Shown here piece by piece: positions 1 to 4,764 of a DNA stretch of 4,764 nt; within the stretch, counting starts at the first letter, position 1; each line of letters begins with the position of its first letter. The stretch lies in the IMG/VR virus record IMGVR_UViG_2663762945_000003. The stretch is one strand, 5' to 3'. The notes beneath the pieces are model-generated. The model saw only the letters and a program-made list of their open reading frames with translations. It was not told the DNA's origin and made no database searches. Position numbers and translations under genes: made by a program. This DNA comes from a virus. Taxonomy: Duplodnaviria > Heunggongvirae > Uroviricota > Caudoviricetes.

Positions 1-849
1 CTTTTTGCAAGTTACTGTCAGCTTTCCATCTGATTTTTTAATGCCTTCAATTTCAACTTCTTCTGTAAGTTCTTTGTTGGAAAGTTTCTCACGTGGGTTT
101 CTTATCATTTCGGCAATATCACGCTTATCTAATTCGATCTTTGCCATACCATTAAACTCTACTCTGTCAGCATCTGAGACGCCTTTCAACACCCCAACCA
201 CAGCATTTGAAGTATGGGATTGAATTCCCTCTGAAATCTCCCTCGCAGCTGCTGTGGCAGTATGAGCAGAAAGAACTTCAACCATGCCATCTTTAAGCAG
301 TCTCATTTGCTCAGTTTGGCTGTTGGTGTCGTTGAGGCCTTCATCAATCTCAAGTTGCTTCATTTTTTCTATATGGCGATCTTTTTGTCTCGACTTTATC
401 AGCCAAGCCCCAGTAAGGATCAGCGATATGAGAACGAGACATATAGCTTTCTCTGTTCCAGTCATACCTTGTGTTGACCTCTCAAATGCAACACCAAATG
501 AATCAATTACATCCTTTATAGCAACAAGTAGGTCAGTACAGCCAGGCTCAACTTTAAAAATTATCTCAAGCTCTTTTCTATCACTGTCTTTCAAATGCTT
601 GAGATTATCCGTTCCTCGCCTTACAAGCATAAACGCTTTATAAAGTTCGGTCTGAAACTCGCACATACCTTGAGCTAAAGAGGACGGTATCGTCCCATTA
701 TACCGGTCTGGATCACCATAAATCTTGAAACTTACGTGGTTAACAAAATCAATTTTAATGTCATTGATAGATATTTGCTGACCTTTCTGAACTCTTTCTA
801 AAAACTCTGAAACGTCGCTTAATGATGAGATATCAATTTGATTGTCCAT
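1..849 (-). CDS. Hypothetical protein, N-terminal 283 codons (3' end lies beyond window start); non-Rex gene at the rexA/rexB position immediately downstream of cI; one predicted transmembrane helix
   Basis: Own translation of the reverse complement: ATG at 849..847, then 283 sense codons with no stop down to nt 1 (MDNQIDISSLSDVSEFLERVQKGQQISINDIKIDFVNHVSFKIYGDPDRYNGTIPSSLAQGMCEF...). It is absent from the supplied ORF track only because it has no in-window stop. Possible weak SD (GAGAA) 5-9 nt upstream of the ATG. Only 22 bp separate it from the cI stop, same strand, so it is probably co-transcribed with cI. Hydrophobic stretch AICLVLISLILTGAWLI (about residues 152-168) followed by a basic cluster KSRQKDRH. 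Does not match RexA as I recall it. The three + strand ORFs in the track (5..223, 262..477, 284..643) overlap it antisense and are taken as spurious. Confidence 0.75.
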   Translation of the reverse strand, partial: MDNQIDISSLSDVSEFLERVQKGQQISINDIKIDFVNHVSFKIYGDPDRYNGTIPSSLAQGMCEFQTELYKAFMLVRRGTDNLKHLKDSDRKELEIIFKVEPGCTDLLVAIKDVIDSFGVAFERSTQGMTGTEKAICLVLISLILTGAWLIKSRQKDRHIEKMKQLEIDEGLNDTNSQTEQMRLLKDGMVEVLSAHTATAAAREISEGIQSHTSNAVVGVLKGVSDADRVEFNGMAKIELDKRDIAEMIRNPREKLSNKELTEEVEIEGIKKSDGKLTVTCKK

Positions 850-871
850 ATCTTTTCTCAATGTTATTGTG

Positions 872-1588
<717 letters not shown>

Positions 1589-1591
1589 TTA

Positions 1592-1620
1592 AATCTATCA
1601 CCGCAAGGGATAAATATCTA
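1592..1620 (-). promoter_or_regulatory. PRM promoter (cI maintenance promoter); -10 TAGATT (1597..1592), -35 TAGATA (1620..1615)
   Basis: Hexamers read directly on the minus strand at the positions expected from lambda; the -10 lies 7 nt upstream of the cI ATG (leaderless mRNA). Confidence 0.8.
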
Positions 1621-1659
1621 ACACCGTGCGTGTTGACTGCTTTACCTCTAGCGGTGATA
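1596..1659. promoter_or_regulatory. Right operator OR: OR3 1596..1612 (TATCACCGCAAGGGATA), OR2 1619..1635 (TAACACCGTGCGTGTTG), OR1 1643..1659 (TACCTCTAGCGGTGATA)
   Basis: Three 17-bp partially palindromic sites between the divergent cI and cro starts. OR3 and OR2 match the lambda operators as I recall them; OR1 differs at one position (A at 1650 where lambda has G). Confidence 0.88.
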
Positions 1660-1661
1660 AT
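1633..1661 (+). promoter_or_regulatory. PR promoter; -35 TTGACT (1633..1638), 17-bp spacer, -10 GATAAT (1656..1661)
   Basis: Near-consensus sigma-70 hexamers with 17-bp spacing overlapping OR2/OR1, followed by SD AAGGAGG (1675..1681) and the cro ATG at 1686. Confidence 0.88.
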
Positions 1662-1676
1662 AATTGCATGTACTAA

Positions 1677-1886
<210 letters not shown>

Positions 1887-1893
1887 ATAACAC

Positions 1894-1925
1894 CGCTCTT
1901 ACACATCACAGCCCTGAAAAAGGGC
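1894..1925 (+). promoter_or_regulatory. nutR N-utilisation site: boxA CGCTCTTA (1894..1901) and boxB hairpin GCCCTGAAAAAGGGC (1911..1925); Rho-dependent tR1 region follows (about 1926..1990)
   Basis: boxB is a perfect 5-bp stem (GCCCT/AGGGC) around a GAAAA loop, as in lambda nutR; boxA lies 9 nt upstream. tR1 is inferred from position only, since Rho-dependent terminators lack a crisp motif. Confidence 0.8.
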
Positions 1926-1994
1926 ATCCAATTAAACCACACCTATGGTGTATGCATTTATTTTCATACATTCAATCAATTGTTATCTAAGGAA

Positions 1995-2027
1995 ATACTT
2001 ACATATGGTTCGTGCAAACAAACGCAA
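1995..2027 (-). promoter_or_regulatory. PRE (promoter for repressor establishment) with CII-binding direct repeats TTGC-N6-TTGC (2027..2024 and 2017..2014, minus strand) and -10 AAGTAT (2000..1995)
   Basis: Minus strand reads TTGCGTTTGTTTGC flanking the -35 position, the classic CII recognition tetrads, with a -10-like hexamer downstream; the element overlaps the 5' end of cII on the opposite strand as in lambda. Confidence 0.75.
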
Positions 2028-2298
2028 CGAGGCACTACGAATCGAGAGTGCGTTGCTTAACAAAATCGCAATGCTTGGAACTGAGAAGACAGCGGAAGCT
2101 GTGGGAGTTGATAAGTCGCAGATCAGCAGGTGGAAGAGGGACTGGATTCCAAAGTTCTCAATGCTGCTTGCTGTTCTTGAATGGGGGGTCGTTGACGACG
2201 ACATGGCTCGATTGGCGCGACAAGTTGCTGCGATTCTCACCAATAAAAAACGCCCGGCGGCAACCGAGCGTTCTGAACAAATCCAGATGGAGTTCTGA
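2005..2298 (+). CDS. cII: CII transcriptional activator, 97 aa
   Basis: Track ORF 1945..2298 contains MVRANKRNEALRIESALLNKIAMLGTEKTAEAVGVDKSQISRWKRDWIPKFSMLLAVLEWGVVDDDMARLARQVAAILTNKKRPAATERSEQIQMEF. The true start is the internal ATG at 2005, preceded by SD AAGGAAAT (1990..1997); the 20 extra upstream codons of the track ORF are read-through of the intergenic region. Confidence 0.95.
   Translation: MVRANKRNEALRIESALLNKIAMLGTEKTAEAVGVDKSQISRWKRDWIPKFSMLLAVLEWGVVDDDMARLARQVAAILTNKKRPAATERSEQIQMEF
2244..2270 (-). terminator. Intrinsic terminator of oop RNA (7-bp stem CGCUCGG/CCGGGCG with one G-U pair, 6-nt loop, then U6)
   Basis: Read on the minus strand: CGCTCGG-TTGCCG-CCGGGCG-TTTTTT (plus-strand A-run 2245..2250). 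It lies inside the 3' end of cII on the opposite strand, where the oop terminator is expected. Confidence 0.7.
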
Positions 2299-2321
2299 GG
2301 TCATTACTGGATCTATCAACA
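2244..2321 (-). ncRNA. oop: oop antisense RNA (about 77 nt), antisense to the 3' end of cII
   Basis: Bounded by the PO promoter (predicted start near 2321) and the intrinsic terminator at 2244..2270; length and position match lambda oop. Ends are inferred, not mapped. Confidence 0.6.
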
Positions 2322-2328
2322 GGAGTCA

Positions 2329-2357
2329 TTATGACAAATACAGCAAAAATACTCAAC
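2329..2357 (-). promoter_or_regulatory. PO promoter for oop; -35 TTGAGT (2357..2352), 17-bp spacer, -10 CATAAT (2334..2329)
   Basis: Hexamers read on the minus strand; the -10 overlaps the O start codon on the opposite strand. Confidence 0.6.
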
Positions 2358-3230
2358 TTCGGCAGAGGTAACTTTGCCGGACAGGAGCGTAATGTGGCAG
2401 ATCTCGATGATGGTTACGCCAGACTATCAAATATGCTGCTTGAGGCTTATTCGGGCGCAGATCTGACCAAGCGACAGTTTAAAGTGCTGCTTGCCATTCT
2501 GCGTAAAACCTATGGGTGGAATAAACCAATGGACAGAATCACCGATTCTCAACTTAGCGAGATTACAAAGTTACCCGTCAAACGGTGCAATGAAGCCAAG
2601 TTAGAACTCGTCAGAATGAATATTATCAAGCAGCAAGGCGGCATGTTTGGACCAAATAAAAACATCTCAGAATGGTGCATCCCTCAAAACGAGGGAAAAT
2701 CCCCTAAAACGAGGGATAAAACATCCCTCAAATTGGGGGATTGCTATCCCTCAAAACAGGGGGACACAAAAGACACTATTACAAAAGAAAAAAGAAAAGA
2801 TTATTCGTCAGAGAATTCTGGCGAATCCTCTGACCAGCCAGAAAACGACCTTTCTGTGGTGAAACCGGATGCTGCAATTCAGAGCGGCAGCAAGTGGGGG
2901 ACAGCAGAAGACCTGACCGCCGCAGAGTGGATGTTTGACATGGTGAAGACTATCGCACCATCAGCCAGAAAACCGAATTTTGCTGGGTGGGCTAACGATA
3001 TCCGCCTGATGCGTGAACGTGACGGACGTAACCACCGCGACATGTGCGTGCTGTTCCGCTGGGCATGCCAGGACAACTTCTGGTCCGGTAACGTGCTGAG
3101 CCCGGCCAAACTCCGCGATAAGTGGACCCAACTCGAAATCAACCGTAACAAGCAACAGGCAGGCGTGACAGCCAGCAAACCAAAACTCGACCTGACAAAC
3201 ACAGACTGGATTTACGGGGTGGATCTATGA
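2331..3230 (+). CDS. O: Replication initiator protein O, 299 aa
   Basis: ORF track protein MTNTAKILNFGRGNFAGQERNVADLDDGYARLSNMLLEAYSGADLTKRQFKVLLAILRKTYGWNKPMDRITDSQ... matches lambda O as recalled; it contains the origin iterons in its middle and overlaps P by ATGA. Confidence 0.96.
   Translation: MTNTAKILNFGRGNFAGQERNVADLDDGYARLSNMLLEAYSGADLTKRQFKVLLAILRKTYGWNKPMDRITDSQLSEITKLPVKRCNEAKLELVRMNIIKQQGGMFGPNKNISEWCIPQNEGKSPKTRDKTSLKLGDCYPSKQGDTKDTITKEKRKDYSSENSGESSDQPENDLSVVKPDAAIQSGSKWGTAEDLTAAEWMFDMVKTIAPSARKPNFAGWANDIRLMRERDGRNHRDMCVLFRWACQDNFWSGNVLSPAKLRDKWTQLEINRNKQQAGVTASKPKLDLTNTDWIYGVDL
2679..2806. repeat. ori-lambda: four about 18-bp iterons (2679..2696 ATCCCTCAAAACGAGGGA; 2699..2716 ATCCCCTAAAACGAGGGA; 2723..2740 ATCCCTCAAATTGGGGGA; 2746..2764 ATCCCTCAAAACAGGGGGA) followed by an AT-rich unwinding region (about 2766..2806)
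   Basis: Direct repeats with internal dyad symmetry (TCCCTC...GAGGGA) are visible in the sequence, followed by an A-rich tract (ACAAAAGAAAAAAGAAAAGATTATT), all inside the O reading frame as in lambda. Confidence 0.9.
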
Positions 3231-3928
3231 AAAACATCGCCGCACAGATGGTTAACTTTGACCGTGAGCAGATGCGTCGGATCGCCAACAACATGCCGGA
3301 ACAGTACGACGAAAAGCCGCAGGTACAGCAGGTAGCGCAGATCATCAACGGTGTGTTCAGCCAGTTACTGGCAACTTTCCCGGCGAGCCTGGCTAACCGT
3401 GACCAGAACGAAGTGAACGAAATCCGTCGCCAGTGGGTTCTGGCTTTTCGGGAAAACGGGATCACCACGATGGAACAGGTTAACGCAGGAATGCGCGTAG
3501 CCCGTCGGCAGAATCGACCATTTCTGCCATCACCCGGGCAGTTTGTTGCATGGTGCCGGGAAGAAGCATCCGTTACCGCCGGACTGCCAAACGTCAGCGA
3601 GCTGGTTGATATGGTTTACGAGTATTGCCGGAAGCGAGGCCTGTATCCGGATGCGGAGTCTTATCCGTGGAAATCAAACGCGCACTACTGGCTGGTTACC
3701 AACCTGTATCAGAACATGCGGGCCAATGCGCTTACTGATGCGGAATTACGCCGTAAGGCCGCAGATGAGCTTGTCCATATGACTGCGAGAATTAACCGTG
3801 GTGAGGCGATCCCTGAACCAGTAAAACAACTTCCTGTCATGGGCGGTAGACCTCTAAATCGTGCACAGGCTCTGGCGAAGATCGCAGAAATCAAAGCTAA
3901 GTTCGGACTGAAAGGAGCAAGTGTATGA
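3227..3928 (+). CDS. P: Replication protein P (DnaB helicase loader), 233 aa
   Basis: ORF track protein MKNIAAQMVNFDREQMRRIANNMPEQYDEKPQVQQVAQIINGVFSQLLATFPASLANRDQNEVNEIRRQW... matches lambda P as recalled; start overlaps the O stop (ATGA). Confidence 0.96.
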   Translation: MKNIAAQMVNFDREQMRRIANNMPEQYDEKPQVQQVAQIINGVFSQLLATFPASLANRDQNEVNEIRRQWVLAFRENGITTMEQVNAGMRVARRQNRPFLPSPGQFVAWCREEASVTAGLPNVSELVDMVYEYCRKRGLYPDAESYPWKSNAHYWLVTNLYQNMRANALTDAELRRKAADELVHMTARINRGEAIPEPVKQLPVMGGRPLNRAQALAKIAEIKAKFGLKGASV

Positions 3929-4215
3929 CGGGCAAAGAGGCAATTATTCATTACCTGGGGACGCATAATAGCTTCTGTGCGCCGGACGTTGCCGCGCTAA
4001 CAGGCGCAACAGTAACCAGCATAAATCAGGCCGCGGCTAAAATGGCACGGGCAGGTCTTCTGGTTATCGAAGGTAAGGTCTGGCGAACGGTGTATTACCG
4101 GTTTGCTACCAAGGAAGAACGGGAAGGAAAGATGAGCACGAACCTGATTTTTAAGGAGTGTCACCAGAGTGCCGCGATGAAACGGGTATTGGCAGTATAT
4201 GGAGTTAAAAGATGA
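3925..4215 (+). CDS. ren: Ren protein (Rex-exclusion endurance), 96 aa
   Basis: ORF track protein MTGKEAIIHYLGTHNSFCAPDVAALTGATVTSINQAAAKMARAGLLVIEGKVWRTVYYRFATKEEREGKMSTNLIFKECHQSAAMKRVLAVYGVKR matches lambda Ren as recalled; ATGA overlap with the P stop. Confidence 0.93.
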   Translation: MTGKEAIIHYLGTHNSFCAPDVAALTGATVTSINQAAAKMARAGLLVIEGKVWRTVYYRFATKEEREGKMSTNLIFKECHQSAAMKRVLAVYGVKR

Positions 4216-4240
4216 CCATCTACATCACTGAGCTAATAAC

Positions 4241-4273
4241 AGGCCTGCTGGTAATCGCAGGCCTTTTTATTTG
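4241..4273 (+). terminator. tR2-like intrinsic terminator (8-bp stem AGGCCTGC/GCAGGCCT, 8-nt loop, T-rich tail TTTTTATTT)
   Basis: Perfect inverted repeat 4241..4248 / 4257..4264 followed directly by a T-run, in the ren-ninB intergenic region where lambda tR2 lies. Confidence 0.75.
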
Positions 4274-4288
4274 GGGGAGAGGGAAGTC

Positions 4289-4764
4289 ATGAAAAAACTA
4301 ACCTTTGAAATTCGATCTCCAGCACATCAGCAAAACGCTATTCACGCAGTACAGCAAATCCTTCCAGACCCAACCAAACCAATCGTAGTAACCATTCAGG
4401 AACGCAACCGCAGCTTAGACCAAAACAGGAAGCTATGGGCCTGCTTAGGTGACGTCTCTCGTCAGGTTGAATGGCATGGTCGCTGGCTGGATGCAGAAAG
4501 CTGGAAGTGTGTGTTTACCGCAGCATTAAAGCAGCAGGATGTTGTTCCTAACCTTGCCCAGCAGGACAGCTACGTGCTGGCAGATGTGCTGGCAACGTTG
4601 CGCGCGGCAGGTGTTCCAGCGTTAACCGATGACAACTATGCGGTGATGAAGGTGGCTCGAATCGGCTGTGAATGCGGCGCGAATGTCTCGACATTTTCCT
4701 GCTTCAAGCTATTTGGGCCAGAGGGTGTTGGTGCAGTGGTCGGCGATGCTGATGTTATCAACCG
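4289..4764 (+). CDS. ninB: NinB (Orf-family recombination mediator) N-terminal about 90 codons, continuing in frame into non-lambda sequence; no stop before the window end (chimeric or fused ORF)
   Basis: Own translation from the ATG at 4289 (SD GAGGGAAG upstream): MKKLTFEIRSPAHQQNAIHAVQQILPDPTKPIVVTIQERNRSLDQNRKLWACLGDVSRQVEWHGRWLDAESWKCVFTAALKQQDVVPNLA, which matches lambda NinB as recalled. From about nt 4559 the frame continues QQDSYVLADVLATLRAAGVPALTDDNYAVMKVARIGCECGANVSTFSCFKLFGPEGVGAVVGDADVIN, which is not NinB-like. Lambda NinB is 146 aa and would have ended before the window end, yet this frame is open for 158+ codons. Not in the ORF track because it has no in-window stop. Confidence 0.7.
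   Translation, partial: MKKLTFEIRSPAHQQNAIHAVQQILPDPTKPIVVTIQERNRSLDQNRKLWACLGDVSRQVEWHGRWLDAESWKCVFTAALKQQDVVPNLAQQDSYVLADVLATLRAAGVPALTDDNYAVMKVARIGCECGANVSTFSCFKLFGPEGVGAVVGDADVIN

Follow-up and report, generated by a model that had tools for sequence, protein, structure and literature searches.

Membrane proteins that exclude phages by blocking injection include lactococcal Sie2009, Streptococcus thermophilus Ltp, P22 SieA, HK97 gp15 and T4 Imm; the genes of Sie2009 and Ltp adjoin the repressor gene. SNIPE, a membrane nuclease, is a precedent for membrane-level defense during genome injection (PMC13190303). Lactococcal AbiP and PdpSau, the latter from a Staphylococcus aureus prophage, join a membrane anchor to an OB-fold, and PdpSau depolarizes the membrane upon Kayvirus infection (PMC10127798). 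In lambdoid prophages, the region between cI and N is a mosaic hotspot that houses the abortive-infection systems RexAB and BstA (PMC8585504, which cites Degnan et al. 2007). The synteny of BstA is kept across diverse hosts, and BstA is reported to act at phage DNA replication sites (PMC8585504). Herein, we describe a different occupant of this region. A 4,764-nucleotide stretch of viral DNA (IMG/VR record IMGVR_UViG_2663762945_000003, Caudoviricetes; the whole stretch is hereafter the window) was identified from its open reading frames (ORFs) as a lambdoid immunity and replication region. In it, cI is followed by a single cargo gene that is unrelated to rexA and rexB and encodes a candidate anti-phage membrane protein.

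The cargo gene lies in the same slot as rexA and rexB of lambda, i.e., after cI and before Timm, in an operon served by the promoters PRM and PRE. Both cargoes are AT-rich and both include a membrane component. The two differ in that lambda has two genes in the slot, while here a single gene lies between cI and Timm. Moreover, RexB is a multi-pass membrane protein, whereas the cargo protein has one predicted transmembrane (TM) helix, an OB-fold and an unrelated N-terminal domain (N-domain). When a profile of 140 family sequences was compared by hhalign with the lambda proteins, the probability of homology was 0.5% for RexA and 0.2% for RexB. An earlier reading of the letters and ORFs alone (the sequence-only reading) had called the gene non-Rex, and these values, both below 1%, agree with it. 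In its position and single-gene nature the cargo resembles BstA, found in prophage BTP1 and its relatives. It differs from BstA in that the cargo protein is predicted to be anchored in the membrane, and no Pfam or PADLOC domain was detected in it.

One gene substitutes for rexA-rexB behind cI

Positions 1–4558 of the window are 99.7% identical to phage mEp332, and over positions 1–1600 the identity is 99.9% to each of the two mEp332 records (EF120456 and PV340541). The sole mismatch within 1–1600 is at position 1061, inside cI (G in the window vs A in mEp332). The first gene of the operon is cI itself (872–1585, minus strand), which encodes a lambda-immunity repressor of 237 amino acids and has 96% nucleotide identity to lambda cI. 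The cargo gene begins with an ATG at position 849 on the same strand, 22 bp past the cI stop at 872, and its translation remains open for 283 codons up to the window edge (1–849, minus strand); the sequence-only reading had placed it correctly. A weak Shine-Dalgarno-like GAGAAAAG precedes the ATG within the 22-bp spacer (850–871, minus strand). Over the part that lies in the window, the gene matches the copies in mEp332 and in E. coli prophages at 100% identity. The full gene (mEp33204, WP_001507092, PHROG 6191) has 345 codons in mEp332 (L001, 5812–6849, minus strand), where residues 1–283 of the product do not differ from those encoded in the window. The last 62 codons and the stop lie to the left of the window, and were read from the mEp332 and E. 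coli prophage copies, which are 99.9–100% identical.

Both ends of the cargo coincide with ends of lambda homology. The boundary on the cI side is the cI stop: megablast matches to lambda, HK97 and other lambda-immunity phages begin at positions 872–876. In the alignment of mEp332 with lambda, homology restarts precisely at the Timm hairpin. This hairpin (AAAAGCCCGGC-CUCAGC-GCCGGGUUUU, then CUUUGCC) begins 22 nt past the stop of the cargo gene and has a folding energy of -18.2 kcal/mol. Timm is supported by folding and by the lambda alignment, and was missed by the consensus terminator scan; the same type of scan found no terminator-like site on the coding strand between cI and the cargo gene. 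Since the boundaries fall at the cI stop and at Timm, the cargo is a one-gene cassette of ~1.06 kb, an exact substitute for rexA-rexB that retains lambda PRM, PRE and the terminator. The replacement of rex in mEp332 is already on record, in GenBank EF120456, an entry from the immunity-region study of Degnan et al. 2007 (cited in PMC8585504). The EF120456 entry (2007) annotates the gene as mEp33204, "conserved hypothetical protein", and sets it after cI and before "Timm", in the order PRM, cI, ORF, Timm, followed by oL3–oL1, pL, nutL and N. Thus, the assignment of the gene to the rexA/rexB slot and to an operon with cI, both made by the sequence-only reading, is borne out by the alignment boundaries, the 22-bp gap, the lack of a detected intervening terminator and the shared Timm.

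The location of the cassette between the cI stop and Timm implies that the gene would be co-transcribed with cI from PRM (-10 at 1592–1597, -35 at 1615–1620), as well as from PRE, and that its product would be present in every lysogen. We infer this co-expression from the architecture of the locus and from lambda biology, by which the transcript of the CII-activated PRE (1995–2023, minus strand) would also cross cI and the cargo gene while lysogeny is being established. For the promoters, the positions annotated in EF120456 were converted to window coordinates by subtracting 1946.

The cargo is AT-rich, with a GC content of 39.5% for positions 1–849 and of 31.7% for the first 60 nt of the gene (estimated earlier at about 33%), against 45.4% for cI and 48.1% for positions 872–4558. 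However, lambda rexA (40.2%) and rexB (42.5%) are comparably AT-rich, and hence a low GC content is normal for the rex slot.

A widespread family linked to about 20 repressor types

Scans of the protein against Pfam, NCBIfam and PADLOC yielded no match even at E ≤ 10, and the lack of an assignable family claimed by the sequence-only reading therefore stands; its suggested PADLOC check, run on the protein, likewise gave no match. The only assignment is PHROG 6191 (E 6.3e-116, residues 1–344 to profile positions 4–337 of 338), a full-length match that has no function assigned, so that no mechanism is gained from it. A Pfam scan of 140 relatives gave scattered single weak matches and no recurrent family. 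Profile search of PDB sequences returned insignificant matches from TM helix or coiled regions, e.g., MotB (E 0.016), and Foldseek against viral predicted structures returned matches to uncharacterized proteins only. The label "T2SS GspM containing protein", which is carried by GenBank PV340541 and related records, was tested against Pfam T2SSM and the GspM/EpsM fold and was not reproduced.

The family is large. A word-indexed protein search recovered just 11–12 clusters, while an exhaustive hidden Markov model search yielded 808 representatives at a cutoff of E ≤ 1e-3 and still 339 at the stricter E ≤ 1e-10. Almost all are 310–360 residues long, and family size is thus at least 808 clusters at 50% identity. 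Among 5,426 complete E. coli genomes, 18 carry the gene, at 99.8–100% identity, and full-length homologs with 34–76% identity occur in Yersinia, Pantoea, Cronobacter, Leclercia, Morganella, Providencia, Proteus and Arsenophonus. One E. coli entry (P0175, EIG1887978.1) is a partial copy of 286 amino acids. Between the window gene and the Pantoea copy, amino-acid changes are far rarer than silent ones (pN 0.17 vs pS 0.72), with a dN/dS of ~0.08 that is rough, as synonymous sites are near saturation. This pattern points to a real gene under purifying selection.

We then asked how often family members follow a repressor gene. The pool was composed of the named homolog loci and 36 IMG/VR loci, each counted if it had at least 900 bp of upstream DNA. 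A cI-type gene was found upstream on the same strand in 38 out of 45 loci, within 150 bp in 30 of them and at 150–800 bp in the other eight. These upstream repressors form 20 clusters at 70% identity, and those of other specificities are of the helix-turn-helix (HTH) plus S24 peptidase type. The linkage to a repressor is stronger than the sequence-only reading could show. Homologs with 27–76% identity directly follow a cI of another immunity in PhiR12_2, in phi458 and in Yersinia, Pantoea and Morganella prophages. The distant member P0022 is also located directly after a cI-type gene, with a gap of 33 bp. A short HTH-only repressor-like ORF lies upstream in one locus (L054) additional to the 38, and the copy in Pasteurella phage Pmp14 is an exception to the linkage.

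In most loci with a gene between cI and the family member, the intervening gene encodes a DUF3024 protein of 111–113 amino acids. It is found in Morganella/Providencia-type prophages (4566–4907 in L006–L009, 3445–3780 in L056 and 3599–3940 in L059) and is a recurrent second cargo of the post-cI slot. The one Morganella copy that was scanned matched the PADLOC candidate single-gene system PDC-S43 (E 1e-30). In locus L018, the next gene but one after P0022 (5388–5756) encodes a DUF3037 protein that matches the PADLOC candidate PDC-M66B (E 9e-9), and a DUF4325 gene comes next. No conserved partner gene was seen across the related loci examined.

The immunity unit itself is also found in other surroundings. 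On the chromosome of E. coli SY3626 (L023), the same unit of lambda-immunity cI and cargo resides within a different prophage backbone, which has a DnaB-type helicase replication module and Rad52, SSB and anti-RecBCD genes, while mEp332 has O/P and exo/bet/gam. As the replication and recombination backbone of L023 differs, the block of immunity plus cargo is mosaic and moves between lambdoid backbones.

Predicted architecture of the cargo protein

An AlphaFold2 (AF2) model built from 140 sequences reached a predicted local distance difference test (pLDDT) score of 90.8 and a predicted template modeling (pTM) score of 0.85. An earlier model from 11 sequences was poor (pLDDT 59), with the OB-fold part alone usable. 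The layout of the model comprises an alpha/beta region (residues 1–128), a hydrophobic helix (131–148), three helices (150–223), a beta-hairpin with a short helix (229–250), and five C-terminal strands, the third and fourth of which are separated by a helix (257–339). The conserved N-domain (residues 1–128; 466–849, minus strand) is an acidic alpha/beta domain with a net charge of -6 and a pLDDT of 83–96. It is followed by a single hydrophobic helix, residues 134–151 by hydrophobic peak and AF2 helix (AICLVLISLILTGAWLIK; 397–450, minus strand), and by a stalk of three helices in the AF2 secondary structure (residues 152–225; 175–396, minus strand). The beta-hairpin and short helix of the model (residues 226–256; 82–174, minus strand) join the stalk to the OB-fold domain (residues 257–340), whose first strands (residues 257–283; 1–81, minus strand) are encoded in the window and whose remainder lies off it.

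Because the hydrophobic peak, at residues 125–150, recurs in almost every one of the 162 family members examined, the segment is read as a TM helix, and the product is a predicted single-pass inner-membrane protein. Conservation by domain is highest in the N-domain and TM helix and lowest in the stalk. The best-conserved residues are G45, L86, G103, M129, Q66 and Y50. A net-positive N-domain occurs in only 2% of family members.

The N-terminal and C-terminal parts differ in how widely they are shared. Of the 145 members of full size, 101 can be aligned over the entire length of the protein and 32 share just the N-domain, the TM helix and some of the helices, while none (0/145) shares the C-terminal part alone. 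By these counts the family is modular, with a core made up of the N-domain and TM helix and a C-terminal module that can be exchanged. In the 32 members, that module has been replaced or is too diverged for alignment, as expected for a target-recognition module. In Orf11 of phi458 (L005, 3857–4903), similarity covers the N-domain, the TM helix and some of the stalk, and the C-terminal part is unalignable.

The structural matches of the C-terminal OB-fold include periplasmic or secreted OB-folds (pertussis toxin S4/S5, SilF and YgiW). The OB domain is acidic, with a net charge of -5 and a family mean of -1.7; it is net positive in 21% of members. An acidic OB domain argues mildly against canonical nucleic-acid binding.

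As for topology, a folded N-domain of 128 residues that lacks a signal peptide would, by the principles of membrane insertion, favor an N-in, C-out orientation. Cysteine accounts for 0.8% of residues in the N-domain and for only 0.2% in the C-terminal part, where 96 of 140 members lack it altogether. Together, the N-domain without a signal peptide and the cysteine bias give a weak hint of an N-in, C-out topology. Ten relatives of exceptional length or with a diverged C-terminal part were scanned against Pfam, which revealed nothing that fixes the topology.

Proposed function and alternative explanations

We tentatively favor the interpretation that the cargo gene encodes a lysogen-expressed anti-phage membrane protein, with the stalk and OB-fold probably in the periplasm and the N-domain/TM core acting as anchor or effector. 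A defense or exclusion function is inferred from the position of the gene, the membrane architecture of its product and the neighboring candidate defense genes. Under such a mechanism, the protein would be made together with cI in every lysogen and would protect against other phages at the cytoplasmic membrane. The N-domain would probably lie on the cytoplasmic side and the stalk and OB module, which vary more, on the periplasmic side, where they could encounter the apparatus by which an incoming phage injects its genome (tape measure, tail tip proteins or inner-membrane entry factors). Consequently to this encounter, either genome entry would be blocked or the conserved N-domain/TM core would be triggered. 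It is distinctly unlikely that the protein represents a new and widespread form of single-protein prophage immunity by transmembrane signaling, which would have replaced RexAB with an unrelated mechanism: the periplasmic stalk/OB part would sense the injection apparatus, and the cytoplasmic domain with the TM helix would execute the response.

In this respect the protein may be compared with the Sie-type blockers and SNIPE, which are envelope proteins expressed by the lysogen or host and acting at genome entry; the predicted membrane helix and the lysogeny-operon position of the cargo would fit the same pattern. It differs from them in that there is no homology, in its larger size, in the folded domains that flank its TM helix and in having no nuclease motif.

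Several observations weigh against an anti-phage membrane protein of this topology. The database names of the homologs are all "hypothetical protein", and we found no functional study of the family in the literature on mEp332, related phages and the rexAB hotspot. When 140 relatives were scanned with PADLOC-DB v2, every model matched two members at most, with no consistent subset. No recognizable catalytic or pore-forming signature was found, the top conserved residue types being G, L, M, Q and Y. The synteny sample consists mostly of Enterobacterales relatives at ≥34% identity. Some copies have other neighbors: a Yersinia copy (L011) lies beside dinI genes and a tail-fibre gene, two phage copies (L017 and L021) lie near Arc repressor and KilA-N genes, and a chromosomal copy (L015) lies near DUF2726 and TIR genes. 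With regard to orientation, lysine and arginine are more abundant on the C-side than on the N-side flank of the TM helix, both family-wide (2.46 vs 1.57) and in the window protein (6 vs 1), and the positive-inside rule would thus mildly favor the opposite orientation. A pTM of 0.85 is also more than would usually be expected of two independent domains across a membrane; the model suggests a fixed relationship between them.

An orientation with the C-terminus inside is what an abortive-infection mechanism of the AbiP/PdpSau kind would require. Here, a cytoplasmic OB-fold would bind phage nucleic acid or protein once injection has taken place, the TM helix would compromise the membrane, and the cell would die before progeny are released. 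The architecture reported for AbiP and PdpSau, a TM anchor and an OB-fold in one polypeptide, is shared by the cargo protein, and PdpSau is likewise the product of a prophage accessory gene (PMC10127798). The K/R-rich C-side flank would favor the required orientation, and the slot usually houses abortive-infection systems, namely RexAB and BstA (PMC8585504). Nevertheless, we regard this explanation as unlikely. The hhalign probability against PdpSau (phage 53 ORF016) is 0.2%, i.e., there is no sequence relation; AbiP is set apart by description, the sequence comparison covering PdpSau. The anchor is N-terminal in AbiP and PdpSau, while here it is central and lies behind a conserved domain of 128 residues that those proteins lack, so that a C-in orientation would need the export of this folded domain without a signal peptide. 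The cytoplasmic domain of PdpSau is reported to be positively charged (PMC10127798), while the OB domain of the cargo protein is acidic, as it tends to be across the family, and the C-terminal part is cysteine-poor. In addition, pdpSau is located after the lysis genes, whereas the cargo gene follows the repressor gene.

A role outside defense is doubtful, yet it has several points in its favor. The product could be an accessory (moron) membrane protein that is expressed in the lysogen and alters the host envelope or fitness, or it could modulate the lysis-lysogeny switch or induction. The position of the gene implies no more than expression in the lysogen, no known defense family matches the protein and some relatives lie outside immunity regions. 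RexA has itself been discussed as influencing prophage induction (PMC12315714), and the architecture may also resemble generic transmembrane signaling or anti-sigma-type proteins. However, no DNA-binding or regulatory domain was detected in Pfam scans of the protein and its 140 relatives, and the tight linkage to 20 repressor clusters, together with the candidate defense genes in the slot, fits a hotspot of exclusion genes (PMC8585504). The two remaining explanations are effectively refuted. By analogy with the cI-rexA-rexB layout of lambda, and on that ground only, the sequence-only reading had expected a rexB-like partner to the left of the window; such a two-gene Rex-like module is very improbable, as in mEp332 and the E. 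coli prophages Timm follows 22 nt past the stop and oL, pL and N come next. Nor do the related loci have a conserved partner, and the DUF3024 gene of some of them lies upstream of the family gene and is absent from the window locus. The chance that the ORF is spurious or a decaying, functionless remnant is close to nil: only the missing annotation speaks for it, whereas the 808 representatives of conserved length and architecture, the purifying selection, the confident AF2 model and the 99.8–100% conservation in 18 complete E. coli genomes all speak against it.

Other features of the window

The OR region (1592–1661, no strand) contains oR3 (1596–1612), oR2 (1619–1635) and oR1 (1643–1659), with PR in the same region; these coordinates were also carried over from the EF120456 annotation. 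The sequence TATCACCGCAAGGGATA is legible at the position of oR3 in the window. The ORF reading identified cro (1686–1886), cII (2005–2298), O (2331–3230), P (3227–3928), ren (3925–4215) and the start of ninB (from 4289). Inside O, at 2690–2770, there are four ori iterons, ATCCCTCAAAACGAGGGA-like repeats, as in lambda; the replication origin of the window is of the ordinary lambda type.

The right end of the window has a different origin. At position 4558, ninB is interrupted after ...CCTAACCTTGCC, and from 4561 onward the window matches yhfS, a core gene of E. coli, at 100% identity; microhomology at the joint does not exceed 2 bp. None of the complete E. coli genomes spans the ninB-yhfS joint. 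Therefore, the right end (4559–4764) is a chimeric joint, formed either as an assembly artefact or by illegitimate recombination.

Biological meaning

Prophage exclusion cassettes behind a repressor gene are of an already known kind. What is new here is the size of the family, its fold, the measured association with about 20 types of repressor and the lack of relation to known defense families. The stretch between cI and N of lambdoid prophages, home of RexAB and BstA, holds in this locus a third, unrelated cargo. The cargo gene is no orphan: its family comprises hundreds of clusters and is repeatedly found behind some 20 repressor sequence types, and this repeated placement indicates that selection kept the gene co-expressed with the repressor.

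If the product is a defense protein, then its cytoplasmic domain, TM helix, stalk and OB-fold would constitute a new fold architecture for prophage immunity, and it may sense infection at the membrane by a new route. If it is not, it would still be an unannotated, conserved and presumably lysogen-expressed membrane protein that is carried by 18 of 5,426 complete E. coli genomes. E. coli K-12 is a host of mEp332, a phage of lambda immunity that is maintained as a lysogen of MG1655 (PMC3442831). The function of the cargo is thus directly testable in a K-12 lysogen, and its product is a good candidate for an anti-phage protein.

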